Shown: positions 46,395 through 64,000 of the stretch, in pieces
How positions within the stretch are numbered: position 1 is the first letter of the stretch
Layout: each line of letters begins with the position of its first letter
Assembly (NCBI GenBank): GCA_035759745.1
Contig: DASTUF010000068.1
Span: forward strand, 20,935 to 84,934
Direction of reading: 5' to 3'
Length of the DNA stretch: 64,000 nucleotides
Origin: Gemmatimonadales bacterium
GTDB taxonomy: Bacteria > Gemmatimonadota > Gemmatimonadetes > Gemmatimonadales > GWC2-71-9
Translations under genes and position numbers: made by a program
The notes under the pieces: generated by a model
The model's database searches: none
What the model saw: the letters and a program-made list of their open reading frames with translations, nothing else
Told to the model about the DNA's origin: nothing

Positions 46395-46690
46395 CAGCGG
46401 GGCCGCGTGGTGTCGGGAGCGGGCAGTGGCAGGAAGGTTATCTCGGCGCCAGTGGCCGGGCGGAGCCCCAGGCGTTCGGCGGCACGGCCGATGGCCGCGC
46501 GCCCCGCAGCTTCGTTGATGCCACGCTGCAGGTCGGCGGCCACCGCCTCGAGCGCCTCACGGTCGCTCCGGGCGTTGTCGAGCTCGCGGGCGAGCTGATA
46601 CGACCTGGTGCCGCGCGACAGGATGATCGTCGCGACCGCGAGGAACGCGAAGAGCCACAGCACCAGCCAGTGTCTACCCCTGATCTGCAT
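46394..46690 (-). CDS. ftsL: Cell division protein FtsL-like (single TM plus coiled coil)
   Basis: MQIRGRHWLVLWLFAFLAVATIILSRG..., then a coiled-coil-like region. Its position between rsmH and ftsI supports the call. The start could also be the GTG at 46720. Confidence 0.6.
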   Translation of the reverse strand: MQIRGRHWLVLWLFAFLAVATIILSRGTRSYQLARELDNARSDREALEAVAADLQRGINEAAGRAAIGRAAERLGLRPATGAEITFLPLPAPDTTRPR

Positions 46691-47591: not shown

Positions 47592-47608
47592 GGCAGGTCC
47601 GGGATGCT

Positions 47609-47643
47609 GGAAACACAACACCCCGTCCGGCAGGGACGGGGTG
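47609..47643 (-). terminator. Intrinsic-terminator-like hairpin downstream of tRNA-Asp, immediately upstream of rsmH
   Basis: The minus strand reads CACCCCGTCC-CTGCC-GGACGGGGTG followed by TTGTGTTTCC. This is a 10-bp perfect GC-rich stem with a 5-nt loop and a U-rich tail. Confidence 0.6.
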
Positions 47644-47662
47644 AGGCGTTCATCGAGATGAA

Positions 47663-47737
47663 CGGGGCTGACGGGGCTCGAACCCGCGACCTCCGCAGTG
47701 ACAGTGCGGCACTCTAACCAAGCTGAGCTACAGCCCC
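47663..47737 (-). tRNA. tRNA-Asp (anticodon GTC)
   Basis: Hand-folded: acceptor GGGGCTG/CAGCCCC, D arm GCTC..GAGT, anticodon stem CCGCA/TGCGG with loop CTGTCAC, T arm GCGGG-TTCGAGC-CCCGT, discriminator G. 75 nt. No encoded CCA. Confidence 0.93.
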
Positions 47738-47799
47738 AGCAAACAGGCGCGCAATGTAACTGCCGGGCGCGGGGGGCGGTAGCCCCCGCACCCCGGCGT

Positions 47800-49545: not shown

Positions 49546-49598
49546 TCCCTGTCCTCCAAGGCGTGGAGGGCCGAACCCGGCCCGATTGACTCGCTGCA

Positions 49599-49673
49599 TG
49601 GGCGAAGAGGGATTCGAACCCCCGACATCCTGCGTGTAAGGCAGGCGCTCTGAACCAGCTGAGCTATTCGCCC
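49599..49673 (-). tRNA. tRNA-Val (anticodon TAC)
   Basis: Hand-folded: acceptor GGGCGAA/TTCGCCC, anticodon stem CCTGC/GCAGG with loop CTTACAC, T arm GGGGG-TTCGAAT-CCCTC, discriminator A. 75 nt. No encoded CCA. Confidence 0.93.
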
Positions 49674-49742
49674 GTCTGGCGCCTCATCCTCACTGAAATT
49701 ACCCCAGGATGCAGGCTCCGTGCCGTGGTCCGTATCACGCTG

Positions 49743-49934
49743 TTACAATGCGATGGCCAACGGAAATAGCACGCAGTAGCCCACAACCAGCAGGACCGCC
49801 GCAGCCGACGGATGGCCCGCATTGAGGACGGCGTAACCCGCCACCAGCGTCAACGTGGCGATGGCCAGCAGCACGAGATTGCGGCGCCCGAAGAGCGCCG
49901 AGCGGCCCCGCGTAGTCACAGATGTACCTGTCAT
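49743..49934 (-). CDS. Small two-TM membrane protein, unknown function
   Basis: 63 aa. FGRRNLVLLAIATLTLVAGYAVL...AAAVLLVVGYCVLFPLAIAL. It is the last ORF of the long minus-strand gene run. Family not established. Confidence 0.45.
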   Translation of the reverse strand: MTGTSVTTRGRSALFGRRNLVLLAIATLTLVAGYAVLNAGHPSAAAVLLVVGYCVLFPLAIAL

Positions 49935-49946
49935 AAGGGCATCACG

Positions 49947-50951
49947 CTACTCACTCGGCGGGACTCGGTCAAGTTCTGCAAGGGCTTCCGGGGACGGTAT
50001 TTCCCAGCCCTCGTCGAGCGCCTCCCGGCGCGGAAGGTCCTGGCGCCGCCGGAACCAGGCTGCTGCCATCACGGCTGCCGCCATCACCACCCAGAAGCCG
50101 CCGGCCACCATCCAGGTAAGCAGCCCATAGCGTCGGCGCACGTCTCGCCGCCAGGCTGCCGCAAACTGGCCCGGGTTGAGCCCGGTGCTGCGCCGGACAG
50201 CATCGCGCCAAGGTACACCCTGCCGCAACAGCTCCAGCAGTGGAGCCAGCGACCCCGTCGGGTGCCGTCGCGCCAGGTCGAGTACGGCGCTGGTCGCCAG
50301 TGCGTACGACGCCTCGGCAGCAGCGGGCCCGGCGCGGAGCGTGGAATCAAGCTGGTCGAGCTCGGGGACTGCGCCACGGAGTACCGAGACGTTGAGCGCG
50401 AGCCCGTCGAGGCGGGACCACTCTCCCGCCGCGTACGAGGCGTATCCCTCCTCGAACCAGCGAGGCATCCGGGTGCGGACCGCACGCCGGAGCGCAAGGT
50501 GGGCCAGTTCGTGGCGCAGGGTACCCGCGGGATCGCCGGCGTCGGTGCGGATGACTATCGTCCTGCTCCCCGGCAGGGCGACGCCCGCGCCCCATGCTGG
50601 CGCCCGGCCCCCGGTCATCCGCTGCAGCGCGTCTACATCCGGCACCACGATCAGCCGAATCGGGCCCGGGTCCTGGCGCCCCAGGCCGGGCCAGGTGGCG
50701 GGCATATCCGCGATTTCGCCGAGGGTGGTGGCCAGGCTCATTTGTTCGGGCCAGGCCACCACCGTTACCTGTCCTACGATGGCAACGTCCGGCCGGCCAG
50801 GATCGGTTCCCTGCAAGCCCAGCAGGAACAGGAGTAGGGTCAGGCGGACTGACGTCGCGGTATGTCCCCTCCGCTGGCGACCAGATCCAGCATCTCCTTG
50901 CAGCGCTTGCCATGGGGGCTGAGCCGGTTGGCCCGCCAGCCCTCGCCCCAC
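49947..50951 (-). CDS. Putative zinc metallopeptidase (HExxH) with a C-terminal TM segment
   Basis: 334 aa. HELAHLAL followed 17 residues later by EEGYASY (a gluzincin-like third ligand). Hydrophobic LTLLLFLLGL near the N-terminus, and WMVAGGFWVVMAAAVMAAAW near the C-terminus. The only in-frame start upstream of the first hydrophobic segment is the GTG at 50951, which overlaps the upstream gene by 112 nt. Confidence 0.6.
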   Translation of the reverse strand: MGRGLAGQPAQPPWQALQGDAGSGRQRRGHTATSVRLTLLLFLLGLQGTDPGRPDVAIVGQVTVVAWPEQMSLATTLGEIADMPATWPGLGRQDPGPIRLIVVPDVDALQRMTGGRAPAWGAGVALPGSRTIVIRTDAGDPAGTLRHELAHLALRRAVRTRMPRWFEEGYASYAAGEWSRLDGLALNVSVLRGAVPELDQLDSTLRAGPAAAEASYALATSAVLDLARRHPTGSLAPLLELLRQGVPWRDAVRRSTGLNPGQFAAAWRRDVRRRYGLLTWMVAGGFWVVMAAAVMAAAWFRRRQDLPRREALDEGWEIPSPEALAELDRVPPSE

Positions 50952-51712
50952 GACTCGAGCGCTGCATCGCGGTCATCGGCGAGCCACTGGGCTCGCCCCA
51001 GTTCGTACCAGGCCTCGATCATGTTGGGCCCCAGCGCCAGCGTCTTCCGGAAGAAGCTCTGCGCATCGACGTACATCTCGCGCTCCAGATAGACCAGCCC
51101 GAGGTAGAAATGAGCGTATAGTGTGGCCTTGCGGTCGTTGTCCAGGCGGATGGCGCGCGAAAGGTGCTCGATGGCCTCGCCGAAGATCCGCTTCTTGAGG
51201 CAGATGTAGCCAACGTTGATCCGGGCGAGCGCGTTGGACGGCTCGCGCATGAGGACGCGGGAGAAGGTGGAGAGTGCCTCGTCGTACTGCTCCGCGTGCA
51301 TCTGGGCCCAGCCAAGGAGCGATTGGGCCTCGGTTGCGTCGGGAGAGAGCGCCAGCGCCTTCTCCAGCACCTGGATGGCCGAGGCGTACTCGCCCAGCGA
51401 AATCAGGCTCCAGCCCTTCTCGATGAAGGTGGAGGCCCCGATATGGTCGGCATGCACCGCTGGAGCCGAGCCCGGGAGTCGCGGGCCGGCGTCGGCATCC
51501 GCGGCCGCCATGGTCTGCTTGTACCCGTCCACCAGCGTTCGGATGCTCTCCTTGATCTCGCCCATCTCGACCAGCGTCGCATCCACGTCCTTGAACAGGG
51601 CGATGATGTCGCGCTTCACCGCTTCGCGATCGGCCGCGCTCGCCGTCGCGGCCAGCCGGGTCTCGATGTCGGCGTAGCGCCGGCGGAAGTCGGCTGCGGC
51701 AGGCTCGGTCAT
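50840..51712 (-). CDS. TPR-repeat protein with an N-terminal coiled-coil region
   Basis: 290 aa. TPR-like units (EYASAIQVLEKALALSPDATEAQSLLGWAQMHAEQYDEALSTFSRVLMREPSN...). Overlaps the cheW stop by 4 nt. Confidence 0.7.
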   Translation of the reverse strand: MTEPAAADFRRRYADIETRLAATASAADREAVKRDIIALFKDVDATLVEMGEIKESIRTLVDGYKQTMAAADADAGPRLPGSAPAVHADHIGASTFIEKGWSLISLGEYASAIQVLEKALALSPDATEAQSLLGWAQMHAEQYDEALSTFSRVLMREPSNALARINVGYICLKKRIFGEAIEHLSRAIRLDNDRKATLYAHFYLGLVYLEREMYVDAQSFFRKTLALGPNMIEAWYELGRAQWLADDRDAALESWGEGWRANRLSPHGKRCKEMLDLVASGGDIPRRQSA

Positions 51713-52173
51713 CGGGCCAGCCGCTCCAGCTCGACCCGCTCGGTCGAGTTGAACAATCGGCGGGCGTTGAGCAGCAGCAGCACCCGCTCGCCCACGGTGG
51801 CAATTCCGGTGATGAACTCCGCCGCCAGGCCCCTCACCATCTCTGGCGGTGCGGCGATGACGCCGGCATCCACGCGCATCACCTCGCGCACTTCGTCCAC
51901 GACGACCCCCACGCCTTCCCCACCCATGGTGATGACGACGATCCGGGTGTCGTCATCCACGGTGGCCGGCAGGCCGAGGCGCTTGCGGAGGTCCACCACC
52001 GGCAGGGCGGATCCATCGTGCTGGACCATCCCCTCGAGGAAGCCGGGAGCACCGGGCAGCGCCGACGGCTGCTGCCACCGGAGGATGCGCTCCACCTGCA
52101 GGATATCGAACGCGAACTCCTGGGTGCCGGTGCGGAACGCGACCAGCTGCACATCATCGCCCGTCATCGTCAC
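51709..52173 (-). CDS. cheW: Chemotaxis coupling protein CheW
   Basis: 154 aa. QLVAFRTGTQEFAFDILQVERIL...PGAPGFLEGMVQHDGSALPVVDLRKRLG...GVVVDEVREV, the canonical CheW pattern. Confidence 0.9.
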   Translation of the reverse strand: MTMTGDDVQLVAFRTGTQEFAFDILQVERILRWQQPSALPGAPGFLEGMVQHDGSALPVVDLRKRLGLPATVDDDTRIVVITMGGEGVGVVVDEVREVMRVDAGVIAAPPEMVRGLAAEFITGIATVGERVLLLLNARRLFNSTERVELERLAR

Positions 52174-52592
52174 AGCATTCCCTCCTCGGCCAGCCTGGCG
52201 CCGAGCAGTGAGAGGTCCAGCAGGGGGATGAGTGAGTCCTCGTACCGCAGCACCGCTCGCGACCAGGGCACTGCCCGGTCAACCGGCACCGCCATCGGGT
52301 CGCCCTCGATCACCAGGTCGGCGTGATCCACCTCGAGGCAGATTCGGCGGCCGTCGGCGTTCAGCACCACGGCCATGGGCGCCGTCGCGGGTTCGGCTCC
52401 GCCGGGCGCCAGCATCCGGGCGAGCGACAACACCGGCACCAACTGGCCCCGGAAGGTCGCGACGCCGACCAGCGACGCCTCTCGGGCCGGGACCGGCGCG
52501 ACGCTGCCGGCGTCCGCCACCAGCTCGAGCTCGCGCACGGGAAGCCCGAAGGCACGGCCACCCGCATGGACCAGGAGGAACGATTCACTCAC
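52170..52592 (-). CDS. CheW-like domain protein (second, divergent)
   Basis: 140 aa. [21 protein letters not shown]...[27 protein letters not shown]... Confidence 0.75.
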
Positions 52593-53668
52593 GCGGCCGC
52601 CATGCGGCTGAGCCGCTCGGCGAGAAACTCGCCGATCCCGGTGATCGACAACTGCACGTCAGCGCCGCCGGCGACCCGGGCGGCGTTGGGCATGCCGTAC
52701 ACTACCGACGTCTCGCGGTCCTGGGCCACGCCAAGTCCGCCCGCTTCACGGACGGCGCGCATGCCTTCCGCACCATCCTTGCCGATTCCGGTCAGCACCA
52801 CCGCGATGGCGTGCCGTCCATAGCTGGCGGCGACACTGCGGAACAGCGGATCCGCTGCGGGGCGCACTCCCCAGACCGGCGCCGAGCGGTCGAGCAGGAG
52901 CGCCGGGCCGTCGCTCCGGCGCGCCACCGTCATATGGTAGTCACCAGGCGCCACGTATGCCGTGTCCTCCAGCAGCGGGGTCGCGTGCTCGGCTTCCACC
53001 ACCCGAACCATGCTCTGCGCGGCGAGCCGCTCGGCGAGGGTGCGGGTGAACCGGGGTGGCATGTGCTGCACGATGAGCACCGCGGCGCCCAGGCCCGTGG
53101 GCAGCCGAGGCACCACCTCCATAAGGGCGCGGGGCCCGCCGGTAGAGGCAGCGATCGCTACCACCCGGCGAGCGCGGTCCGGCAGGACGCCAAAACCGCC
53201 CGACTGCATCGGCGGCCGATGGGGGCGCGCGAGCGGGGCCAGGCGGAAGAGTTCGGCATGCTGGGCCGCGCGCAGCGCCGTGAGCACCCGCTGCCCCAGC
53301 CGCTCGACATTCTCCCGGCTCCGTCCCTCATCCTTGGCGACGAGGTCAACGGCACCGAGTTCAAGCGCCCGAATGGCACCGGCGGTGCCCGGCCCCGCGT
53401 ACGCGCTGACCACCACCACCGGCCGGGGGGCTTCGGACATGATGTACCCGATGGCAGCGAGCCCGTCGAGCTCCGGCATCTCGAGGTCCATCAGCACCAG
53501 GTCCGGCGCGAGCGCGTGCACCTTCTCGATCGCGTCCTGGCCGTTCCGCGCGGTGCCCGCGACGGTGAAGTCGCCCGACTGCTGCACCGCCTCCGCCAGC
53601 AGCCGGCGAAAGAACGGGCTGTCGTCGACGATCAGGACCGTGCGGGGGCTAGAGTTCGCGGTTGCCAT
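52589..53668 (-). CDS. cheB: Chemotaxis response regulator protein-glutamate methylesterase CheB
   Basis: 359 aa. Receiver domain ([14 protein letters not shown]...[14 protein letters not shown]), then the methylesterase domain ([26 protein letters not shown]). Confidence 0.95.
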
Positions 53669-54134
53669 GCGCCACCGAAGAGACTATCACGCTCCCGTCC
53701 GCAATGGTGAATGTTACCGTCCGGCCGAAGTCACCGCCTACCGCCTCGCCCATGATCGGAATCTCGTGCTGCAGCAGCACGGTGCGGGTAGCGACCAGAT
53801 TGCGCTCGCCCATCTGGATGGTCCCGGGTGACGCCAGGTTGGCGAACATGCTCGCCCCACCGGCGAGCCGGGCCTGGATCCGGCGGCGGTCGGCGCCGAG
53901 CTCGGTCATCGCGGCGAGCATCGCCGGGATCGCGGTCTGCGGCACCCGCGCCGGGCGATGCGTGGTGGATCGTGCCAGCGCCGGCGTCGGGAGCAGCACA
54001 TGCGCCAGGCCGCCCACGCGCGACACCGCATCGTGCAGCACGATGGCCACGCAGCTCCCCAGGCCGACCGTGACCAGCGTGGTGCCGGCGGTCGCGGCGC
54101 GAAGTTCGGCCACGCGCACGAAGAGCTTGCTCAC
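53649..54134 (-). CDS. cheD: Chemoreceptor glutamine deamidase CheD
   Basis: 161 aa. [14 protein letters not shown]...GLAHVLLP...KLAGGASMF-type pattern ([10 protein letters not shown] here). Confidence 0.9.
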
Positions 54135-54949
54135 GCGGCCCGCCGGTAGATGCGCTCGCGGGTGTCGATCAGGGTGAGCCGTTCGCGGGCGCTGCCGAGC
54201 AGGGTTTCCACTTTCCCCAGTACCAGCAGTCCCCCGGGCGAGAGGTGACCGGCAAAGGTCTCGAACAGACGCTCCTGCATCGGCCGATCGAAATAGATGA
54301 CGACATTGCGGCAGCAGATGAGATCGTACACCGGCCGCAGCGGCTGCTCGCGGGCGAGGTCAAGCCGGGTCACATGCACCAGCCGCCGAAGTTCGGCTCG
54401 GACCTGTCGGCCGGTCGGTGTCTCGACGGTCCACCGCGTCACGAAGGCAGGTGGCGTCTCCTGGAATGCCTCGGCCCGGTACTCACCAGCTGCGGCGCGC
54501 TCCAGCGACGCGCGGTCGACATCGGTGGCGTCAATCTCCAGCCGCCCCAGCCAGTCGGCGTGCCCCGCGTTCGCCGCCAGCTCGGCGACGATCATCGCGA
54601 TGGTGTATGGCTCTTCCCCCGATGCGCAGCCCGCGCTCCACACCCGCAGGGCGCCCTCGCGCCCCGACCACAATGCCGGCAGCGGACCGGTGCGAAGTGC
54701 GTCCCAGGTCTCCGGGTTCCGGTAGAAGCGGGTGACATTGATGGTGAGGGCATCCTGCAACCGGTGCAGCTCGTCCGCGTTCCGGTCCAGGAAGTCGAGA
54801 TACTCGTCGTAGCTGGCCGCACCGCAGGCGCGCATCCGCACGGCGATGCGCCGGCGGAGGCACTTGTCCTTGTACACCTCGAGGGACATGCCCGACGCGG
54901 CGGAGAGGCGGCGGGTGAGCCGCTCGAACTCGACATCGCGGTCGGTCAC
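54131..54949 (-). CDS. cheR: Chemotaxis protein-glutamate O-methyltransferase CheR
   Basis: 272 aa. Motifs TINVTRFYRNPETWDAL, RVWSAGCASGEEPYTIAM and LICCRNVVIYFD. Confidence 0.95.
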   Translation of the reverse strand: MTDRDVEFERLTRRLSAASGMSLEVYKDKCLRRRIAVRMRACGAASYDEYLDFLDRNADELHRLQDALTINVTRFYRNPETWDALRTGPLPALWSGREGALRVWSAGCASGEEPYTIAMIVAELAANAGHADWLGRLEIDATDVDRASLERAAAGEYRAEAFQETPPAFVTRWTVETPTGRQVRAELRRLVHVTRLDLAREQPLRPVYDLICCRNVVIYFDRPMQERLFETFAGHLSPGGLLVLGKVETLLGSARERLTLIDTRERIYRRAA

Positions 54950-56565
54950 GAGGCAGCATCCAGCAGGTCGAGATTGGCACGGGCCAGCTGATGGGCCGGG
55001 TTGAGTTCGGTGGCCCGGAGCCAGCGTTCGCGGGCGCGCACCGTCTCGCGCCGCTTGAAGGCGATGTTGCCCAGCTTGAAGTAGACGTCGTCGCCCAGGT
55101 CCGGCGCGAGCTTCAGCGCCCGCTCGTACGCGTCGGACGCCTCATCGTAGCGGCCCGAGCGATAGCAGATGTCGGCGAGGTTCTTCCACAGCTGCGGCAA
55201 GGCTGGCTCATCCTCGAGCGCGGCGCGCAGCAGGCGTTCCGCCTCCTCGACATGGCCGCCGGCCTCCAGCAATACAGCCAGCGCGTTCCTGAGGATGGCA
55301 CTGCCCGGATGGGCCTCGACTCCGGCGCGGGCGGTCTCGCGTGCGGCGTCGGACCGGTCCGCAACCGCATGCGCCAACGAGGCGGCCCAGAACCAGACGG
55401 CCGGCACCGGGCGCTGTCCCAGGAGCTCCCGGGCGCGCTGCAGCCGCTCCAGCGCCTGGGCATGGTCACCGCGCTTGAGGGCAATGATGCCCCAGCCCAG
55501 CTGGATGCGCGGCTCGTCCCGGGCCCGGGCCGCCGCATCGGCATAGGCGGCCTCGGCCTCCTCCAGCCGGTCGAGACGTTCGAGCGCGTAGGCCAGGTTG
55601 TGAAGCGCCGCGGGCCGGGGGCCTCCCTTCTCGATCACCTCGCGCAGGATGTCGACCGCATCGGTCCAGCGCGCCTGGCACAGCGCGATCAGCCCCAGGT
55701 GAAAGGGCGCAGCGGCCTCAGAGGGGCGCAGGTCGGCCACCCGCCGGAACTCGCGTTCGGCTTCGTCCAGCATTCCGGTGCGGAAGAAGGCCACGCCGAG
55801 GTTGCGGTGCTCTTCGACCCTCGCATCGGTGGCACGCGGCGCGGACGACGCGGTCGATGAGCCGACCCGGTGCGCGAAGCCGGCGGTGATGAGGCCGTAC
55901 AGGGCCTTGCCGGTCTCGAACTCCACCAGGCCCGACTCCTCCATGACCTGCCGGACATCGCGGGTGCCATCGAGCAGCGGCAGTATCTGGCTCTGCGCGG
56001 CGCTCAACGTGACATCCGACTCGGCCATCCGGTCGGGCTCGACCCGGAACTGCAAGTCAAAGGACGGAATCTTCCGCGTGATCAGTTCCCACTCGTCCAC
56101 CCGTCGGGCTCCTTCGAGCAGCAGGCTCTCCGGGTTGATGGACACGAGGAAGTCCTCGCGTTCGGGCCGCACGCCGGCTTCGAAGTTGAAGGTCCCGCTG
56201 TTCCAGGTGAAGAGGAAATACACCGCCTCCTCGATCTGGACCCGCATGTAGTCCTCGAGCTCCTGGCGAGTGAGCGCGCCTGCTTCCACCAGCAGCTCGC
56301 CGATCTTCTGCTCCGGGGACTGCGCCTGCGCGTCCACGGCCCGCTGCAGCACCTCCGGCGCGAGCCGGCCGCTTCGCACCAGCAGGTCACCCAGGCGGTC
56401 GCGCCGGTTGACGATCGAGGCGTAGATCAGCCGGCCCTCATCGAAGTAGATGTAGCCGAAGTTCTGGCGATCGGCGATCGACAGGCATCCCGAGCGGCGC
56501 CCCAGCGTGAGCAGCTGGATGACGTCCGGCAAGCTGGCTTCCTTGAGGCTGCCCTTGATGGCCAT
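54946..56565 (-). CDS. PATAN/DUF4388-domain protein with a helical insert and a C-terminal TPR array
   Basis: Start at the ATG at 56563-56565 ([50 protein letters not shown]...), abutting the upstream stop. The G.L...SL.DV.QLL...SG.L...G.IYF..G pattern is the DUF4388 signature as I recall it. The C-terminal ~300 aa are TPR repeats. Confidence 0.75.
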   Translation of the reverse strand: MAIKGSLKEASLPDVIQLLTLGRRSGCLSIADRQNFGYIYFDEGRLIYASIVNRRDRLGDLLVRSGRLAPEVLQRAVDAQAQSPEQKIGELLVEAGALTRQELEDYMRVQIEEAVYFLFTWNSGTFNFEAGVRPEREDFLVSINPESLLLEGARRVDEWELITRKIPSFDLQFRVEPDRMAESDVTLSAAQSQILPLLDGTRDVRQVMEESGLVEFETGKALYGLITAGFAHRVGSSTASSAPRATDARVEEHRNLGVAFFRTGMLDEAEREFRRVADLRPSEAAAPFHLGLIALCQARWTDAVDILREVIEKGGPRPAALHNLAYALERLDRLEEAEAAYADAAARARDEPRIQLGWGIIALKRGDHAQALERLQRARELLGQRPVPAVWFWAASLAHAVADRSDAARETARAGVEAHPGSAILRNALAVLLEAGGHVEEAERLLRAALEDEPALPQLWKNLADICYRSGRYDEASDAYERALKLAPDLGDDVYFKLGNIAFKRRETVRARERWLRATELNPAHQLARANLDLLDAAS

Positions 56566-58550
56566 CAGCGCCACTCCTCGATCAGGCGCGCCGGCACCTC
56601 GGGCCACTCCCAGACCATCTTCTCCCGGCTGCGTATGCCACCGGCCACCAGCGGCGTGACGCCATTGGTGCGGGGCTGCACCGTGCGACGGGCGGCGCCG
56701 GTGGAGGAGCCATCGAGCACCTCACGCGCCAGCACCGCGCTCGCTGCCACACCCTTCGCCTCGGCTGCCTGAAGTACGCGCTGGACCGTGCCAAGCGCCG
56801 CGCGGAACGACTCGGCCGGGCGGCTGCCGATAACCCCCGGCAGCTCGGGGTCCACCTGCTCGAGCCGGGCCGACAGGTGTCGCTCGGCAACGCGCTGGCG
56901 CAGGTCGCGGTCCGGCTGCGGCAACTCGACCACCAGGCCCCCCTCGAACCGGGTCAGCAGCCGAGGCGCCATGCCGGACAGCTCGGCCAGCGGCACGCCG
57001 GTGGTGAACACCATCTGCCGGCCGTGGTCATGGAACTCGTTGAACAGCAGGAAGAGTTCCTCCTGCGAGCGTTCCTTGTCCGCGAGCAGGTGGACATCGT
57101 CGATCAGCAGCGCATCGGCCCGGCGCCAGCGCGCCCGCCAGCGGGGGACCGCGTCCTGGTCGATCGCCGCGATCAGCTCCTCCACGAATTCGTGCGCCCC
57201 AACGCACGCGACCGTTAATCCCGCGGCCGCAAGCGCGTTGCCCACGCCATGCAGGACATGGGTCTTGCCATTGCCGCTGGCGGCGCTGATCAGCAGCGGG
57301 TTGTAGCGGGTGCCGGGCTCGGCCGCGACCGCGCGTGCGGCGCGCACCGCCACACGATTGGCCGGGCTTTCGAGCAGATCATCGAGCAGCCAGTGGGGTG
57401 ACGGCGGCGAGGGCGGTTCGAGGCCCTCGCGCGCACGCTCCAGCAGGGAGGCGGCGGCCTCGACCCGGTCCGGGTCCCGCAGCGCCTGATCGCCAGCGAG
57501 GTCGGGTGCCACCCGCTCGAGGTCCTCCGCGATCTGCTGCAGCCGCCTCACGTCCGTCGCGAATGCGGCGAGCGCTCCGTCCGGATCCTGCGGCAGCGCG
57601 CCATTGTCCAGCAGTTTCTCGAGCCGGGTGGTGCGGAAGCCTTCGCCGCTCCAGCGCAGCACCGCTTCGGCCACGCGCGACCGCCACGACTCGACCTGCT
57701 GCGTCACCGTGCTCGCGATCTCCTGCAGGAAGTCGGTGAACTCATCCGTCCCGCCTTCCGCATCGTCGGCCGGCGCGCCTCCGCCCGCCGTGCCCTCGAT
57801 AGCCTCGCCGGCCCGGCTCGCAGCGACATCCGCGATGCCCGCGAGCTCGGCCCGCGCCTCCGCCACCGAGAGCGGCCGGCCCGCGGCGGCCTGGGCGGCG
57901 CTGACCCGGTTCAAGGCGCCGAGCAGCTCGCGCACATTGTCGAGCGGGATCTCCGCAGCGGCCTCGAGCACGCCCGGCGCGAGCTCAAGGCCGCGCGCCT
58001 CGGCCTTGCGGCGGAGGATGGCTACGCGGGTTTCGTAGTCCGGCGCGCCGACGTCCACCACCAGCCCGCCACCGAAGCGGCGCAGCAGCCGGTCGTCCAG
58101 CGCCTCGATGTCGGCCGGGGGACGGTCGCTGGCGAGCACGATCTGGCCGCCCGAGGCCTGCATCGCATCCACCACGCGCAGCAACTCGCTCTGCATTTCG
58201 CGGCGACGCGCCAGTGCCTGGACGTCGTCCAGCAGCAGCAGGCCAAGCTCGGAGTAGCGACGGCGGTAGGCATCACCCTGCCCTGCGGTGATGGCCGCAT
58301 GGAAAGCCTCGACGAAGTCGTCGAGTGTCAGGTAGCCGACGGCGAGGCCGGGATTGATGGCGAGTGCCGAGTGGCCGATGGCCGTGAGCAGGTGCGTCTT
58401 GCCCAGCCCCGGTGTGGCATAAATGAAGAGGGGGTTGTAGACCGCACCGGGAGACTCCGCCACGGCACGGGCAGCGGTGGCCGCCAGGCGGTTGCCGGAG
58501 CCGACCACGAACTCCTCGAAGCGGAGCCCCGGATGCAGCTTCTGGTTCAC
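56565..58550 (-). CDS. Tandem DnaA-type AAA+ ATPase (two DnaA domain-III-like modules; no DnaA domains I, II or IV)
   Basis: 661 aa with a GTG start overlapping the mglA stop (GTGA).
- Module 1: [81 protein letters not shown].
- Module 2: [61 protein letters not shown].
No DNA-binding HTH region was seen. Confidence 0.8.
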
Positions 58551-59146
58551 GCCGGCGCCCCTGCCGCGAGGCGACGAAGCACCGACTCGGAGATGCCCTT
58601 CAGCGTCTCGAAGACGCCGCTCCCGTGCAGGGCATCGGCGCCGAAGCTTTGCACGCCGCGGAAGTTCAGCGCCTCATCGAGCGCGTCGCTGGAGAGCACC
58701 AGGTCGGCCGGCAGGTCCTGCTTGTTGTACTGCAGCACGACCGGGAGGTCACGCACATCGACGCCCTGTTCCAGCAGGTTTTCCTGGAGATTCTGGAGGC
58801 TCTCGAGATTGTCGTCGAAGCGGCGGGCCTGGCTGTCGGCCACGAACACCACCCCGTCGGCTCCCTGGAGCACCAGCTTCCGGGTGGCGTTGTAGTAGCT
58901 CTGGCCCGGCACGGTGTACAGCTGGAACCTGGTGGTGAACCCCGAGATCGAGCCGAGGTCGAGGGGCAGGAAATCGAAGAAGAGCGTGCGGTCGCCGTGG
59001 GTCGCGAGCGAGACCATGCGGCCACGCCGGTTCTCCGGCACCCGCCCGAAGATGTACTGCAAGTTGGTCGTCTTGCCGGACCTGCCCGGGCCGTAATAGA
59101 CGATCTTGCAGGTGATCTCGCGGGTGGTGAAGTTGACGAGCGACAT
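58547..59146 (-). CDS. mglA: MglA-family small Ras-like GTPase
   Basis: ATG at 59144-59146 gives [33 protein letters not shown]...[11 protein letters not shown]...[10 protein letters not shown]...VLQYNKQDL. This is near-collinear with Myxococcus MglA as I remember it (P-loop, intrinsic Arg in [13 protein letters not shown], NKxD). Confidence 0.9.
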
Positions 59147-59147
59147 G

Positions 59148-59609
59148 TCAGCGTCCAAAGAGCGCGTGGAGGCTGGCGTTCAGCTCCCGCTCGAAGTTCT
59201 CGGCCAGCACCGGCGCCTGGGTGGTCTCGGGCGGCGCGACGGCCACAAGTTCGCGCACCAGTTCGTCCCAGAAGAGCTGCACCAGCCCGACGCTGGTCTC
59301 GCTGCCGAATACGACCAGGCCGACCCACCGGCCACGTGGCGTGTCGAATCCCGACAGCAGCATGCCCTGCTCACTGCCCTGGTGCACCAGCGCACCGAAA
59401 CCCCGCTGGTCCATGAGCCGGGCCACCTCGGTGGTCGAGGCGACGATGCCAGCACCGAGCGCCGCCGCCGCCATCACGTCCAGCGAGCGGGTGAATCCGT
59501 GCTGGGCCACCACCTGCCCCGCCGACGTCATCAACAGCACCACACGGGCTTCGCTCTCCGCGAGGAAGTGTTCCAGCGGCGGACCCACCCAGGGCTCGAG
59601 GGTGCGCAT
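59148..59609 (-). CDS. mglB: Roadblock/LC7-domain protein, MglB-like (putative GAP of MglA)
   Basis: Internal ATG at 59607-59609 of track ORF 59148..60209 gives 153 aa: [39 protein letters not shown]...[12 protein letters not shown]..., a Roadblock fold pattern. It sits directly upstream of mglA, as in the mglBA operon. Confidence 0.75.
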
Positions 59610-59959
59610 CAGCCGAGCCCCTGCGCGACGTCGAGCATTTCCAGCCGGGCCAGGCCCAGGTTGGCATCGGCCTGGGTCACTGCGACCACCAGCAGTTCTG
59701 CGGCGGCGGCAGGCACGGCGAGCAGGTTGCCGCGCTCCGCATGCAGGTGCAGCACCCGTGGTGCCTCCAGCCCGGCTTCGGCGGTGGTGCGCGCCAGTCG
59801 ACCCGCAAGACTCGCCGCCAGCGCTGCGACTGCCCGGCCATCCACGCCATCCATCAGCGACTCGGCCACAACCAGTCCGTCGGCCATGGAGACGAGCATC
59901 GCGCCCCGCACGCCGCGCACCGCGCTGATACGCCCAAGTTCGGTTTCGTAGCGACTCAC
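59609..59959 (-). CDS. Roadblock/LC7-domain protein (second paralog)
   Basis: GTG at 59957-59959 overlaps the upstream stop (GTGA). 116 aa: VSRYETELGRISAVRGVRGAMLVSMADGLVVAESL...AALAASLAGRL...NLLAVPAAAAELLVVAVTQADANLG. Confidence 0.7.
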   Translation of the reverse strand: MSRYETELGRISAVRGVRGAMLVSMADGLVVAESLMDGVDGRAVAALAASLAGRLARTTAEAGLEAPRVLHLHAERGNLLAVPAAAAELLVVAVTQADANLGLARLEMLDVAQGLG

Positions 59960-60852
59960 GAGGCCCGCTCCAGCCAGCGTCGCGCAGCAGCAGCGGCGCG
60001 ATCGGCGATGACGGCCAGCCGGCCGGCGGTGACGCTCGCATCGCGCGCCGCGAGGAGTACAGTGTCGGGTGATGGCGCCGCGAGGTGCAGGTTGCCAGGC
60101 CCGCACTCGGCCGACAATCGCTGCCAGTTGCCGAGATCCAGCAGGCGCGCGGCCCGCACCGCCTCTCGCGACACACCGGAGAGGTGCGCCGCCACAGCAT
60201 CGGCGACATCGCGACCGTCGCGATCGCGCAGGCCGCCGCCCAACCGCAGCCCGTTCACGTCGAGCAGCAGGAGACCGTCACGGGCGCCCTCGAATCCCTC
60301 GAACAGTTCTGACTCGGCCGGCAAGTCGTCGTCGGCCTCCTCCTCGAGCTCGAACGGCAGCCCTTTGCGCTGCCGGGGCATCGGCGCGCGGGGCTCGCTG
60401 GAGCGGGCGGACACGGGCGCCGGCGTCTCCTCGGCGCCCGTGGGGGCCGCACCATCCAGCGTGGCGCGCACGGTGGCGATTGCCCGGGCGAGTCCCGGCT
60501 CGTCGCTGCGTGCGCGGGCCATCTCCAGGTGACGCAGCGCGCGGGGCAGGTCACCCGCACGGTAGTAGAGGAATCCGAGGCCCTTGTGGGCGCCGAGATG
60601 GCTGGGATCCCGCTGCAACGCATCCATCCACGCATCGAACGCCGCTTCACCGTCGCCGAGGTCGCTATGGATCCTGGCCGCAAGATCGCGGGCATCGGCG
60701 AGTTCGGGATAACGCGCCATGCCGGACTCGGCCACACGCAGTGCGGCCTGGAACTGTCCCCGCCGGCGCAGAGTCTCCCCCAGGTCGAGGAAGACCAGGC
60801 TCGCCGGATCGGCAACCAGTTCCGCGGTCATGGCGCGGATCGATTCACTCAT
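59956..60852 (-). CDS. TPR N-terminal domain fused to a C-terminal Roadblock/LC7-like domain
   Basis: 298 aa. TPR units at the N-terminus, an acidic linker (PFELEEEADDDLPAESELFEGFE), then GLLLLDVNGLRLGGG...VADAVAAHLSGVSREAVRAARLLDLG..., which resembles Roadblock. The Roadblock assignment is by pattern only. Confidence 0.6.
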   Translation of the reverse strand: MSESIRAMTAELVADPASLVFLDLGETLRRRGQFQAALRVAESGMARYPELADARDLAARIHSDLGDGEAAFDAWMDALQRDPSHLGAHKGLGFLYYRAGDLPRALRHLEMARARSDEPGLARAIATVRATLDGAAPTGAEETPAPVSARSSEPRAPMPRQRKGLPFELEEEADDDLPAESELFEGFEGARDGLLLLDVNGLRLGGGLRDRDGRDVADAVAAHLSGVSREAVRAARLLDLGNWQRLSAECGPGNLHLAAPSPDTVLLAARDASVTAGRLAVIADRAAAAARRWLERAS

Positions 60853-61999
60853 GCGCGTTCCTCATGGCTCGGCCCAGCATCCGCGCCGCCGCGCGGAGTT
60901 CGCTGACCCAGCCCCCCTTCGCATCTTCATCGGCAGGCCGCATCGGCAGCCTGCTCCACGCATCCCAACTGTCCACCGCTTCCTCGAAGCGTCCGTCGCC
61001 GGCCAGCGCCATGCCAAGCAGGCGGCGCGAAGTGGCATCGCCGGGCGCCAGCCGAAGCGCCTGCTCGAGGGCCGCCGCGGCATCGGCCGGCCGGCCGGCC
61101 GCGAGCAGCACCCGTCCCAGCATCAGGTACAGCGACGGGTGCTCGCCCACCGACATGGCAGCGGCCTCCTGCACGGCTGCAAGGGCCTGCTGGGTATTGT
61201 CGGCGATCAGGTACGCTTCCGCCCGCGCCAGCAGGTCGGCCACGTCGCCGCTCTCCGCCTCGGGTTCCGGCAGTGCCCTGGGATCGTCGACCGCCACCAC
61301 GCCTGCGGCGGCGAGGCCGAACAGGGTCCGCGCCACCTCGAACTCGGAACGCGCGACGTGCTCGGCCACCGCGCGGATGTTGCGCTCGCCATCCACCGCC
61401 GCGAGCACTTCCCATTCGGCCGGGAGCAGGTCCATCGGTGCGGCATCGTGCTCGTCCGGCGCAATCAGGCGGGGCACCACATCGAGGTGGGGAATGCGGG
61501 CCTCGATCCGGCTCCACTCGTCGATGCGCCGGGCCGCTTCCATCAGCAGCGCCTCGGTGGGAATGCGCACCACCGCCTGCGCCGGCACATCCTCCAACGG
61601 CGCTTCGCTGAATGAGAAGTGGCCTTCGGCCCAGTTCATCAGCTCGAAGATCACTTCCTCCACCTGCCCCCGGACGTGGCGGTCCAGGTCGCGCTGGCTG
61701 ATGGCACCGATGCTCACCAGCACCTCACCCAGCCGGCGCCCGTCGCCGGTGGCCTGCATGTCGCGAGCCCGCGCGAGGTCCGAGTCGGAAACCTTGCCGA
61801 CCCGCAGCAGCAGCGCGCCGAGCGGGTGCGGATTGCTCTCGATCTCGGCGGCGACCACCTTGCCGCCATCGAAGTACACGGTGCCGCCATTCTGTCGCAG
61901 CTCGGAGCGCACCCGCAGGATGCCCGACTTCCGCGCCAGGTCGAGCAGCTGGAACACATCGTGAATGCCGAGCTCGCGAAGCGGTCCCTCGATCGGCAT
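60845..61999 (-). CDS. PATAN/DUF4388-domain protein with a helical insert and a C-terminal TPR region (second paralog)
   Basis: 384 aa. MPIEGPLRELGIHDVFQLLDLARKSGILRVRSELRQNGGTVYFDGGKVVAAE..., then a winged-helix-like region and TPR-like helices. Confidence 0.75.
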   Translation of the reverse strand: MPIEGPLRELGIHDVFQLLDLARKSGILRVRSELRQNGGTVYFDGGKVVAAEIESNPHPLGALLLRVGKVSDSDLARARDMQATGDGRRLGEVLVSIGAISQRDLDRHVRGQVEEVIFELMNWAEGHFSFSEAPLEDVPAQAVVRIPTEALLMEAARRIDEWSRIEARIPHLDVVPRLIAPDEHDAAPMDLLPAEWEVLAAVDGERNIRAVAEHVARSEFEVARTLFGLAAAGVVAVDDPRALPEPEAESGDVADLLARAEAYLIADNTQQALAAVQEAAAMSVGEHPSLYLMLGRVLLAAGRPADAAAALEQALRLAPGDATSRRLLGMALAGDGRFEEAVDSWDAWSRLPMRPADEDAKGGWVSELRAAARMLGRAMRNAHE

Positions 62000-62002
62000 G
62001 GC

Positions 62003-63934
62003 TCAGGCCTCCCGATCAGCGAGGATGTGCTCGAGGTCGCGGGCTGAACGCGCACGCGAGCGCGCCTCGCCCGCCAGTGCCCCGCCCGGCTCCAGCTGGA
62101 TCACGCGGTCCCAGGCTTCGACCGCCGCACGAAACTGGCGCACCCGGGCCAGCGCCGCCGCGCGATGGAAGAGCGCCAGCACATGGTCGGGCACGAAACG
62201 GAGCACCCGATCGAACGCCTCGAGCGCCGGGCCGGTGCGACCGTCGTCGAGCAGCGCGCGCCCCAGCAGCGCGAGGGCGTCGAAGTCGTAGGGATCGGTC
62301 TCGAGCACCGGCACCAGGAATGACACCGCTGCCCTGGGCGACTCGGTGCGGCGCAGCAGGTCGCCCAGCGACAGCTGCGCGGGCGAGTAGGTCGGCAGCA
62401 GCTGCAACGAGCGCTCGTAGGCCGCTCGCGCTGCGGTAAAGTTCTCCCGGGTCTCCTCCAGCCCGCCCAGTTCGCGCCACACCTGCACCAGGCCGGCATC
62501 GATCCGCAACGCCAGCTGGCATGCCTCGAGCGCGGCTTCGGTGTCGCCCATGCGCGCAGCGATGGTGGCCTGCAGCTGATAGAGCTCCGGCCGTCCCGGC
62601 GCCACTTCCAGCGCATGGCGAACCAGCCGAAGCGCGCTTCGCTCGTCATCGACCGCGAGATGCGCCCGGGCGCAGGCCACCAGCGCCTCCGGATCACGCG
62701 GCCGCAGCCGCTCCAGGCGCGCGGCGAGTTCCACGGCCTCCGCTCCCCGATCGAGCGCGGCCAGCGACCGGATCTCACCCAGCAGCGCGTCGCCGTCGTC
62801 GGGAAGGGCCGCCCGTGCATCGCGGAATCGCTCCAGTGCCTCCCCGTGGAGCCCGCGCCGGGCAAAGATGTCGCCCATGAGGGTTGCCACCCGCCCTGGA
62901 TCGGCACCGCGGGCACGCGCGCGCCCAAGTTCTGCCGTCGCCAGCTCGAGCAGTCCCTTGGCGACATAGTCGCGCGCCAGCGCGAGCGGGTCGTCGGCCG
63001 ACACCTCGGCCGATGCGGGCCGGGCCGCGGGCGCGAGGTCAGTGAACAACTCCTCCAGCGCTTCGGGGTCAAACGCAAACTCGCCTGCCAGCTGCTCTCC
63101 CCCGACGTCGCCCGCCAATTCCGGCATCACGCCGATGGTGGGATCCTCGTACTGCAAGTCGAGCGCGAGCGTGTACTTCTGGGCGACATAGAACGGCTCC
63201 AGCTCGAGTGCCCGGCGGGTCTCCCGCAGCGCGCCGTCGTAGTCGCCGACCTGGCTCAGGGTGAAGCTCAGGTTGTAATGCGCGGACGCGAGGTCGCCGT
63301 CCGCCTCGACCGCGCGCTGGAACGCGGTGCGTGCTTCGGCGTAGCGCTGCAGCTCCATGAGCACGAGACCGACGCCGTTCCAGGCCAGGGCATTCGCCGG
63401 CTGGTCGGCCAGCACCCCACGGTAGTGCTCCAGCGCCGCCTGCAGTTCGTGGCGCTGGAGGTGGAGCAACGCGACGTTGAGCCGCACCGCGGGCGGCAGC
63501 CGCCCGGCCTGCAGCGCCCGACGGAAGGTCGCCAGCGCGAGGTCGCCCTCGCCGTGCGCGGCATGCAGCACGGCCAGGTTGTTCCACGCGATGGCATAGC
63601 CGGGATCCAGATCCACCGCGCGCAGGTATGACTCCTCGGCCGCCTCGCGCTGGCCCAGCTGCTGGAGGCAGACGCCGCGCTCGCTCCAGAGCTTGGGGGA
63701 ATCGGGATCCTGGCGCGTCAGTTCGTCGTAGCGCTCCAGGGCGGAGGGCAGTTCGCGCCGGAGCAGCTCGACCTCGGCCATGGCCTGCAGCACCAGACGG
63801 CGGTCCTCGCCCGCGTCCAGCGCGAGCCGATACTCGCGCAGCGCCTCGACCAGGTAGCCCTTCTGGCGGAAGGCGAGCCCGAGGTTGAAGTGCGCGAGTG
63901 CCGCATCCGGCACCGGCAGCGGCGCGTCACCCAC
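62003..63934 (-). CDS. Large TPR-repeat protein (about 14+ TPR units); possibly 5'-incomplete
   Basis: 643 aa from the GTG at 63934. TPR consensus is repeated throughout (AHFNLGLAFRQKGYLVEALREYRLALD..., AWNNLAVLHAAHGE..., AHYNLSFTLSQVGDYDGALRETRRALELEP...). The frame stays open upstream to position 64000, so the true start may lie outside the window. Confidence 0.7.
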   Translation of the reverse strand: MGDAPLPVPDAALAHFNLGLAFRQKGYLVEALREYRLALDAGEDRRLVLQAMAEVELLRRELPSALERYDELTRQDPDSPKLWSERGVCLQQLGQREAAEESYLRAVDLDPGYAIAWNNLAVLHAAHGEGDLALATFRRALQAGRLPPAVRLNVALLHLQRHELQAALEHYRGVLADQPANALAWNGVGLVLMELQRYAEARTAFQRAVEADGDLASAHYNLSFTLSQVGDYDGALRETRRALELEPFYVAQKYTLALDLQYEDPTIGVMPELAGDVGGEQLAGEFAFDPEALEELFTDLAPAARPASAEVSADDPLALARDYVAKGLLELATAELGRARARGADPGRVATLMGDIFARRGLHGEALERFRDARAALPDDGDALLGEIRSLAALDRGAEAVELAARLERLRPRDPEALVACARAHLAVDDERSALRLVRHALEVAPGRPELYQLQATIAARMGDTEAALEACQLALRIDAGLVQVWRELGGLEETRENFTAARAAYERSLQLLPTYSPAQLSLGDLLRRTESPRAAVSFLVPVLETDPYDFDALALLGRALLDDGRTGPALEAFDRVLRFVPDHVLALFHRAAALARVRQFRAAVEAWDRVIQLEPGGALAGEARSRARSARDLEHILADREA

Positions 63935-64000
63935 CGAGTCGCTGTCGTCGCGCGGGTGGGACAGTGAGCCGAGCGACAGGTTGGCTTGCGCACGGCTGAG

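Follow-up and report, generated by a model that had tools for sequence, protein, structure and literature searches.

Chemosensory genes enclose mglBA, Roadblock, PATAN-TPR and tandem DnaA-like ATPase genes in a cluster conserved across the order Gemmatimonadales

Myxococcus is the only case in which genetics has resolved the link between a chemosensory pathway and the small GTPase MglA; its two sets of genes lie apart, and what connects them was hard to find. What joins the two systems is a question posed in another form by a 64,000-nucleotide stretch of DNA from a Gemmatimonadales bacterium (GenBank assembly GCA_035759745.1, contig DASTUF010000068.1, positions 20,935 to 84,934 of the forward strand), hereafter the window, in which positions 49743 to 64000 carry sixteen consecutive minus-strand genes that include mglB and mglA together with che genes. 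Here we ask whether these genes belong to one system and what that system might do. We favour, with modest confidence, one chemosensory supercluster in which a CheA/CheY pathway and its adaptation proteins are co-expressed with a module of MglA/MglB, Roadblock, TPR and PATAN-TPR proteins and a DnaA-derived ATPase. The sixteen genes and their conserved downstream neighbour are listed in gene order.

g1, 62003..64000, minus strand: large TPR protein, C-terminal ~665 of ~893 residues in the window (Pfam TPR families)
g2, 60845..61999, minus strand: PATAN (DUF4388/PatA_N) plus TPR protein, 384 residues (Pfam DUF4388, 4.8e-31, 107.8 bits)
g3, 59956..60852, minus strand: TPR protein with C-terminal Roadblock/LC7 domain, 298 residues (Pfam TPR; Robl_LC7 22.2 bits; hhalign)
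g4, 59609..59959, minus strand: stand-alone Roadblock/LC7 protein, 116 residues (Robl_LC7 34.3 bits; PDB 7f8m, E 8.6e-7)
g5, 59148..59609, minus strand: MglB, 153 residues (matches to MglB structures)
g6, 58547..59146, minus strand: group-1 MglA small GTPase, 199 residues (M. xanthus MglA 5ymx, E 4.3e-70)
g7, 56565..58550, minus strand: tandem DnaA-domain-III AAA+ ATPase, 661 residues (two Pfam Bac_DnaA matches, 295 bits)
g8, 54946..56565, minus strand: PATAN (DUF4388) plus long TPR region, 539 residues (DUF4388, 2.9e-35, 121.4 bits; TPR)
g9, 54131..54949, minus strand: CheR methyltransferase (Pfam CheR 1.4e-46, CheR_N 1.4e-12)
g10, 53649..54134, minus strand: CheD (Pfam CheD 2.4e-25)
g11, 52589..53668, minus strand: CheB, receiver (REC) plus methylesterase (CheB_methylest 6e-61, Response_reg 2.8e-21)
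g12, 52170..52592, minus strand: divergent CheW (Pfam CheW 1e-17, 64.5 bits)
g13, 51709..52173, minus strand: CheW (Pfam CheW 1.1e-32, 113 bits)
g14, 50840..51712, minus strand: TPR protein, 290 residues, last of the tightly overlapping run (Pfam TPR)
g15, 49947..50762, minus strand: Peptidase_MA_2 (HExxH) protein with C-terminal hydrophobic helix, kept in the cluster (Pfam 4.2e-10)
g16, 49743..49934, minus strand: 63-residue protein with, by reading, two hydrophobic stretches (open reading frame; no Pfam match; homologue there in most loci)
d1, 47800..49599, minus strand: 599-residue TPR protein, conserved downstream neighbour (weak NCBIfam TPR matches)

All sixteen open reading frames (ORFs) and their translations are as first annotated, and every domain call was borne out by Pfam, PDB or hhalign profile matches. 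Gene g1 is cut by the window edge and continues for about 228 codons beyond position 64000, and two relatives supply what lies further upstream. Positions 46500-64000 align with JAICQR010000006.1 from a Gemmatimonadales metagenome-assembled genome (MAG; GCA_025937755.1, locus L001) as one 17.5-kb segment of 86.4% nucleotide identity; the blastn high-scoring segment pair is collinear and ends inside g1. The second relative, L002, is a 3.48-Mb contig; its DnaA-like protein has 60% identity to g7. In both, the full g1 product is a TPR protein of about 893 residues (893 in L001), and the genes upstream of it are, in order, those for a pseudouridine synthase, CheW, single-domain CheY, CheA (Hpt-(P2)-dimerisation-HATPase-CheW) and CheC. 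The cheW-cheY-cheA-cheC run lies directly upstream in about 50 further genomes as well. Because L001 and L002 place CheW-CheY-CheA-CheC before g1, we estimate the full unit at about 20 genes and about 18.3 kb, of which the window would hold the downstream three quarters, and the initially annotated extent of 16 genes and about 14 kb was too small. The assignment of these four genes to the source genome rests on synteny, as they lie beyond the window edge.

Inspection of the full order reveals cheW-cheY-cheA-cheC, TPR, PATAN-TPR, TPR-Roadblock, Roadblock, mglB, mglA and the tandem DnaA-like AAA+ gene, followed by PATAN-TPR, cheR-cheD-cheB-cheW-cheW and TPR and, after short gaps, by the genes for the membrane-anchored MA-type peptidase-like protein and the small membrane protein. 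That is to say, che genes of one pathway flank the MglA block on both sides, so that the block is not readable as an independent neighbour operon unless that pathway is split. Downstream of the cluster come the 599-residue TPR gene and then rsmH, ftsI, murE, mraY, ftsW, ftsA and ftsZ of the division and cell wall (dcw) operon. The initial annotation had advised a look upstream for CheA, CheY or an MCP (methyl-accepting chemotaxis protein). CheA and CheY were found in all complete related loci, whereas a phmmer search of the window and of 87 related loci (1.46 Mb), with a query validated by an MCPsignal match at 3e-63, gave no match to an MCP signalling domain. The MCP receptors are presumably encoded elsewhere.

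Conservation of the gene order had been set beforehand as a test that could refute the initial hypothesis. One genome per GTDB species was scanned with the single g7 protein, yielding 80 loci with 43-92% identity in the DnaA-like protein, and the six-frame ORFs of these loci were searched with the window proteins and filtered by domain coordinates. The order proved collinear in 80 Gemmatimonadales species genomes. CheW, CheY, CheA, CheC, g1 to g16, the 599-residue TPR protein and RsmH (22 genes) follow one another in essentially every locus that is long enough, and the arrangement is kept almost gene for gene in more than 70 species. The same order with the same overlap lengths in about 50-80 species-level genomes is more than chance, and the cluster, with its parts and their sequence so retained, is typical of the order Gemmatimonadales. 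CheY and MglA are its most conserved proteins.

The junctions between these genes are equally regular. From g1/g2 onward, the recomputed junctions in the window measure +3, -8, -4, -1, +1, -4, -1, -4, -4, -20, -4, -4 and -4 nucleotides (gaps positive, overlaps negative), with +12 at g15/g16. The operon-like organisation and the junction list of the initial annotation were thereby reproduced except at g14/g15, for which an overlap of 112 nucleotides had been reported. The ATG that starts g15 in L001 is ATC in the window, and the L002 protein starts MAVAWP; the start is most likely GTG 50762, which would give a 77-nucleotide gap after g14, to be compared with a median of +62 nucleotides in 47 genomes. 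The reported overlap is an artefact because the longest ORF had been taken for g15. Across the relatives, for which gap statistics were computed over 41-80 genomes depending on the junction, the junctions from cheY to g14 are gaps of 10 nucleotides or less, or overlaps, in 62-100% of 48-80 genomes, and in at least 80% at all of them except cheA-cheC. Typical values from g2 to g14 are -8, -4, -1, +4, -4, -1, -4, -4, -17/-20, -4, -4 and -4, and the median gaps thereafter are +20 nucleotides after g15, +168 after g16 and +198 after the 599-residue TPR gene. A promoter and terminator scan of positions 46500-64000 gave no internal site above shuffled expectation, a result that says little either way.

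The g7 scan returned only Gemmatimonadota-type loci, and more distant relatives were reached by a 50%-representative search together with a second homologue search. Their loci show which parts of the cluster stay together. The reduced variant of Gemmatimonas sp. and relatives (L078-L083) keeps g1, g2, MglA, the DnaA-like gene, g8, CheD, CheB and g14-g16. In the divergent Gemmatimonadota MAG L085, the order is TPR-PATAN-TPR/Roadblock-Roadblock-MglB-MglA-tandem DnaA-PATAN-CheR-CheB-CheW-peptidase, in a place that is not beside dcw. The most distant relatives with recoverable context, L003 (labelled Ca. Cloacimonetes bacterium 4572_55) and L087, have a DnaA-like protein about 30% identical, entirely different flanks and the order CheW-CheY-CheA-AAA_22-CheW-CheC-TPR (about 820 residues)-PATAN (about 245 residues)-tandem DnaA. 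In the divergent Gemmatimonadota MAG L004, only a g1-like TPR gene stands directly upstream of the tandem DnaA gene. In every lineage surveyed, the DnaA-like gene has the large TPR protein as its constant neighbour, and the invariant core is the big TPR gene plus the tandem DnaA gene, usually with PATAN and che genes.

Three side observations concern these loci. An AAA_22 ATPase of about 270 residues followed by a long CheW-domain protein of 284-343 residues is encoded in L003 (3743-5493), L087 (4339-6011) and L086 (7074-8902), the last of which carries the cluster with this pair at the g12 position; the two might be another ATPase plus CheW accessory pair. Two bactofilin genes (L004 3765-4667) lie a few kilobases upstream of the TPR and DnaA-like pair. 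Short contigs with the cluster (about 54-63% identity; L010, L013, L066, P0430, P0489) occur in MAGs labelled Bacillota, Ca. Limnocylindria, Acidimicrobiia and Vicinamibacteria, and are most likely binning errors.

The ATPase half of the invariant core, g7, consists of two Bac_DnaA modules that are 36% identical to each other. Module 1 (about residues 5-245) is followed by a disordered linker, a family-specific helical middle domain (about 283-376), module 2 (about 390-613), a second disordered linker (616-645) and a C-terminal peptide. Pfam gave no match in g7 to DnaA_N (PF11638) or Bac_DnaA_C (PF08299), both of which are present in the true DnaA proteins compared. Module 1 matches domain III of B. 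subtilis DnaA at E 2.4e-54 in the PDB. In an AlphaFold2 (AF2) model of g7 with a predicted local distance difference test score (pLDDT) of 82.6, Foldseek places module 1 on 8bv3_A at TMt 0.93 and a root-mean-square deviation (rmsd) of 1.6 Å, with 44% identity over aligned columns. Among 38 relatives, G48-L54 (GLGKTHL), D108/D109, the box VII residues R154/R158 and the sensor-2 residue R207 are invariant in module 1, as are D485, R530 and R534 in module 2, where G428/K429/T430 and D484 are at least 90% conserved; the second module is degenerate in some distant relatives. With the AAA+ catalytic motifs kept in both modules, g7 is a predicted competent ATPase.

The last 19 residues of g7 (56568-56624) form a near-invariant peptide, EK[MV][VI]W[ED]WP[DE]hxxR[LV][IL]E[ED][WLF]R-COOH, in 63 distinct sequences. 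It always ends the protein, recurs in L001-L084 and follows a linker of about 30 residues with pLDDT below 50 in the AF2 model. EEVD tails bind TPR clamps, and the NWETF tail of MCPs binds CheR/CheB; by analogy, the g7 tail looks like a tethered docking motif. Full-length relatives extend down to about 31% identity in an exhaustive search of 1.8 billion cluster representatives. Databases widely label members of the family 'chromosomal replication initiator protein DnaA' or 'DnaA/Hda family protein', which is a systematic mis-annotation because the tandem ATPases have no DNA-binding domain.

The block that precedes g7 resembles the polarity proteins of other bacteria. The g6 product matches the MglA structures of M. 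xanthus and T. thermophilus with E values between 1e-67 and 4e-70 (5ymx over 196 residues). Its P-loop GPGRSGKTT aligns with GPGLCGKTT of M. xanthus MglA and fits GxxxxGK[ST], its G3 region fits TxxGQ, and the segments DRTLFFDF, with the intrinsic arginine, and YTVPGQ are identical to those of M. xanthus MglA. The roles of these residues in MglA (the intrinsic arginine finger, R53 in M. xanthus; the catalytic glutamine; the threonine that replaces the aspartate of Ras) have been described (PMC3199381, PMC3000849), and g6 has the sequence of a bona fide group-1 MglA. Directly upstream, with a gap of 1 nucleotide, g5 matches M. xanthus MglB (6hjm, 6h5b, 6izw) at E 8e-10 to 2e-9, as well as T. 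thermophilus MglB. Both proteins bear, by sequence, the features of their Myxococcus and Thermus counterparts. Of the three proteins assigned to the Roadblock fold, only g4 passes the Robl_LC7 cut-off of 23 bits, with g3 just below it and g5 at 18.6 bits; a profile of the g3 C-terminus matches that of the g4 Roadblock with a probability of 87% and E 4e-6 in hhalign.

The two PATAN-TPR proteins far exceed the 25-bit cut-off of DUF4388 (PF14332), whose 122-position profile spans about 160 residues in them. Pfam gave no match to Response_reg in g2 or g8, which have TPR repeats instead. The initial annotation had pointed to a cyclic di-GMP (c-di-GMP) input through MshEN motifs. MshEN domains carry two 24-residue RLGxx(L/V/I)(L/V/I)xxG(L/V/I)(L/V/I)xxxxLxxxLxxQ motifs with a 5-residue spacer (Wang et al. 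2016). A similar tandem is present at residues 59-112 of g2 (61664-61825) and residues 57-110 of g8 (56236-56397), in which the second 24-mer fits the relaxed motif at 11 of 11 positions in both proteins and the first at 10 of 11 (g8) or 9 of 11 (g2). The key R/L/G/L/Q positions are conserved in the PATAN family. No copy fits the strict form, however, the spacer has 6 residues rather than 5, and Pfam gave no T2SSE_N match in g2 or g8. What survives of the c-di-GMP input is thus the motif itself, which may be compatible with c-di-GMP binding.

An AF2 model of g8 residues 1-240 (55846-56565; pLDDT 80) consists of a beta-meander, a four-helix insert (57-120) and a C-terminal part that resembles a winged helix. 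The highest-ranking PDB folds for it, chains of GATOR1/SEA complexes, match weakly (E 5e-3, TMq 0.32-0.35). GATOR1/SEA complexes regulate Rag GTPases; should the modelled match be genuine, PATAN would serve small GTPases as a platform domain. Profile comparison in hhalign gave no support for a relationship between PATAN and Roadblock. In Synechocystis, PATAN is an output element that binds PilB1 and PilC (preprint 10.1101/2021.06.11.447907).

The chemosensory pathway itself looks like the Thermotoga/Bacillus (F1-like) motility type because of the likeness of its CheY and CheA to those of T. maritima and the presence of CheC and CheD. The cluster CheY shares 63% identity with that of T. maritima and 32% with that of E. 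coli, and 1TMY ranks first among its PDB matches (E 5e-50); for CheA, too, the T. maritima protein is the closest. The full cluster has three CheW genes.

How far, then, do these observations carry the supercluster reading? The initial annotation's polarity or motility switch draws on family knowledge and would hold by analogy, and it is from gene content and order that we infer a coupling of the che pathway to the MglA/DnaA-like module, and its output. Several points weigh against this reading. The neighbouring dcw operon is packed with the same style of overlap, start/stop overlaps are common in this genome, and in L001 and L002 the first cheW shares 8 nucleotides with an unrelated gene, that of a pseudouridine synthase. 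The junctions that the initial annotation cited for a single unit are indeed tight, but since dcw and the pseudouridine synthase gene share their style, tightness alone is weak evidence, and co-transcription of the cluster is itself something that we infer from sequence. Likewise, synteny across the order extends over the entire region, rsmH and the unrelated dcw operon included, so conserved order alone is weak evidence too. The reduced Gemmatimonas clusters (L078-L083) contain none of the three Roadblock genes (g3, g4, mglB) and no cheR, and G. aurantiaca T-27 has a separate MglB>MglA> pair at GAU_1115 (Table S2 of Wuichet and Sogaard-Andersen 2014). The module is consequently not an obligatory stoichiometric unit. 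The L003 and L087 clusters have no MglA, Roadblock, CheR or CheB, for which reason MglA/MglB/Roadblock is an addition seen in Gemmatimonadales and not part of the core. CheY is of the flagellar type, whereas what is known of PATAN and MglA elsewhere speaks for type IV pili; the cluster has no MCP; and the role given to the DnaA-like protein is a proposed one.

The flagellar character of CheY bears directly on the output. Because CheY is of the Thermotoga/Bacillus flagellar type, a swimming-chemotaxis pathway with a positioning module is as plausible as a Frz-like reversal switch. A related alternative, which overlaps partly with the supercluster reading and differs from it in the job of the module, takes the locus for an ordinary flagellar (F1-like) che operon whose block is a placement or inheritance system for the chemoreceptor array or flagellum, analogous to ParC/ParP, PpfA or FlhF/FlhG. 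The T. maritima-like CheY and CheA, the joint presence of CheC and CheD, the three CheW genes and the flagellar genes reported for Gemmatimonadales (PMC7203096) agree with it. The AAA_22 and long CheW proteins of the relatives, at the g12 position or after cheA, also recall ATPase plus CheW-domain positioning pairs. However, Pfam gave no ParA/MinD-type ATPase among the 16 genes, in contrast to the ParC/ParP or PpfA systems, the relatives' AAA_22 is not of ParA type, the PATAN precedents involve type IV pilus motors, and we know of no link of MglA to flagella or chemoreceptor arrays. We regard this alternative as rather unlikely, if the most serious of those considered. No flagellar or type IV pilus genes were found in the 64-kb window.

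If the adjacency were mere conserved synteny, cheWYAC, the MglA/Roadblock/PATAN/TPR/DnaA-like genes and cheRDBWW would be separate modules in a compact, rearrangement-poor region. The order-wide synteny of rsmH-dcw and of the pseudouridine synthase gene, the frequency of start/stop overlaps and the variable content of the block (Gemmatimonas without Roadblock and cheR, L003/L087 without MglA) would all suit such a history. We nonetheless think it improbable, because the block parts CheA/W/Y/C from CheR/B/D/W, genes of one pathway and an odd site for an unrelated insertion kept in more than 70 species; because the association of che with TPR-PATAN-tandem DnaA recurs, without MglA and with entirely different flanks, in a lineage only about 30% identical; and because L085 keeps the cluster away from dcw. 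As arguments for a functional link, these points do not rest on regional synteny, and the overlap lengths are, in addition, conserved at every g2-to-g14 junction. The least supported alternative, and a very improbable one, is that the DnaA-like ATPase acts on replication or the cell cycle as an Hda-like hetero-oligomer with DnaA, coupling polarity and chemosensory state to replication and division: its closeness to B. subtilis DnaA domain III (module 1), the retention of all ATPase and arginine-finger motifs, the position of the Gemmatimonadales cluster directly upstream of dcw and the bactofilin genes near the L004 pair are set against a protein without domain I or the DNA-binding domain IV, an N-terminus with, by reading, no Hda-type clamp-binding motif of the form QL[SP]LPL, a constant partner that is a TPR protein and not a replication gene, and the loss of dcw adjacency in L085, L003, L087 and L004 with the TPR/PATAN/che association kept.

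Under the supercluster reading, a mechanism can be sketched. A CheA-CheY pathway of the Thermotoga/Bacillus type, in which CheR/CheB/CheD/CheC would adapt MCPs from other loci, would assemble with a polarity or positioning module. MglA-GTP, as the on state, would define a pole together with MglB and two further Roadblock proteins, which, on the model of MglB/MglC/RomY, may act as GTPase-activating protein (GAP) or co-GAP. The adaptors would be the TPR and PATAN-TPR proteins, and PATAN might touch a motility motor, as cyanobacterial PATAN does with PilB/PilC, and might bind c-di-GMP. The tandem DnaA-like ATPase would be an ATP-dependent switch or an oligomeric scaffold, with its tethered C-terminal peptide docking it to a TPR protein of the set. 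As output, the system would set the place or the direction of a motility organelle at the pole, or else of the signalling array. More tentatively, and in our view short of an even chance, the TPR protein and the tandem ATPase with its tethered peptide could be an unrecognised ATP-driven core component of signalling, chemosensory or polarity-related, in Gemmatimonadota and allied bacteria of the FCB group; it would predate the MglA module and not depend on it. An initiator-clade AAA+ fold would then have been recruited from replication as a nucleotide-dependent scaffold or switch that links CheA/CheY to PATAN adaptors and, in Gemmatimonadales, to MglA/MglB.

The nearest known system is Frz with MglA/MglB/RomR (and MglC, RomX/Y) of Myxococcus xanthus, which likewise combines a Che-type pathway with a group-1 MglA, MglB and additional Roadblock proteins. 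Frz is distinguished by the CheA-REC fusion FrzE, the dual-REC protein FrzZ, the cytoplasmic receptor FrzCD and the CheR-TPR protein FrzF. The Gemmatimonadales cluster has no FrzE-type fusion, no FrzZ and no FrzCD-type MCP, and its CheR (g9) has no TPR; it has CheC, CheD, PATAN-TPR proteins and the DnaA-like ATPase instead. No RomR-type gene turned up among the Pfam matches of the cluster, with no search aimed at RomR. The coupling of MglA to Frz is established in Myxococcus (PMC3441718, PMC4316618), where frz and mglBA are unlinked (PMC4316618), in contrast to Gemmatimonadales, where mglBA lies inside the che operon.

The cyanobacterial Tax/Pix/Hmp systems with PatA-type regulators have in common with the cluster a PATAN (DUF4388) domain with an alpha-helical insert in a che-like operon. 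In contrast to them, PATAN is fused here to TPR and not to REC and occurs in two paralogues, alongside MglA/MglB, Roadblock and DnaA-like genes and a stand-alone CheY of the Thermotoga type. Actinobacterial conservons (CvnA-D), with a sensor kinase, Roadblock and an MglA-family GTPase in one operon, are a precedent for an MglA-like switch wired to a phosphorelay; they differ in having a group 2 GTPase, a membrane histidine kinase rather than CheA, and no adaptation system, PATAN, TPR or AAA+ protein. The Thermotoga/Bacillus F1-type pathway shares CheA, CheW, CheY, CheC, CheD, CheR and CheB, whereas the cluster has no MCP and carries an eight-gene non-che block mid-operon. With the initiator-clade AAA+ proteins DnaA, Hda and DnaC/IstB, g7 has in common that both its modules show the fold and motifs of DnaA domain III. 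Unlike DnaA, g7 joins two modules through its own helical domain, has no domain I, II or IV, ends in the tethered peptide and stands in a signalling/polarity context; unlike Hda, which is a single domain III, it has two modules in 661 residues.

Part of this arrangement had been seen before. The linkage of PATAN with MglA/MglB was noted by Wuichet and Sogaard-Andersen (2014), who credited Makarova et al. (2006) for PATAN-MglB, and their Table S2 gives the neighbourhood of GAU_1409 in G. aurantiaca T-27 as 'PATAN>MglA>-PATAN>'. This is the same type of locus in its reduced Gemmatimonas variant, with an unnamed '-' gene at the position of the DnaA-like gene. The table lists PATAN and MglA only; the flanking che genes are not in it, nor are the DnaA-like ATPase, its TPR partner and the fuller MglB/Roadblock variant. 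The PATAN-MglA/MglB linkage, PATAN in cyanobacterial che operons and the Frz-MglA functional link are thus already known. Literature searches found no paper on the che embedding of mglBA with three Roadblock genes or on its order-wide conservation, and none on the tandem DnaA-like ATPase family, its TPR partner, its tethered peptide or DnaA paralogues in motility. The initial annotation's statement that it knew of no such described system therefore stands for the che embedding and the DnaA-like gene, and not for the PATAN-MglA neighbourhood.

The surroundings of the cluster complete the picture of the window, which has a G+C content of about 69-70%, nearly all genes on the minus strand and proteins whose homologues carry Gemmatimonadales or Gemmatimonadota labels. 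The 599-residue TPR gene d1 is probably outside the coupled unit because a gap of about 145-170 nucleotides separates it. Between d1 and rsmH, a 10-bp G+C-rich hairpin with a T-rich tail (47619-47643, minus strand) overlaps the start of rsmH and could serve as a terminator between d1 and the dcw operon; the number of such sites is not above shuffled expectation. The dcw operon region (26000-47621) is on the same strand as the cluster, and its adjacency to the cluster is order-wide, with the exceptions named above. The rest of the window holds housekeeping genes. Two further minus-strand features are a ComEC-type competence channel gene (Competence plus Lactamase_B; 13014-15323) and a 490-residue ORF with no Pfam match at E <= 1e-5 (18068-19540).

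A whole bacterial order thus keeps a chemosensory pathway and MglA/MglB in one string of genes with junctions in the style of translational coupling, together with candidate connectors: TPR, PATAN-TPR and Roadblock proteins and a DnaA-derived ATPase. The string names the proteins for tests of direct contact. The widespread tandem DnaA-like ATPase family and the non-cyanobacterial PATAN-TPR proteins thereby gain their first biological context, and a systematic error in the annotation of Gemmatimonadota genomes is corrected. Experiments are feasible in Gemmatimonas aurantiaca, which can be cultivated and has the reduced cluster.

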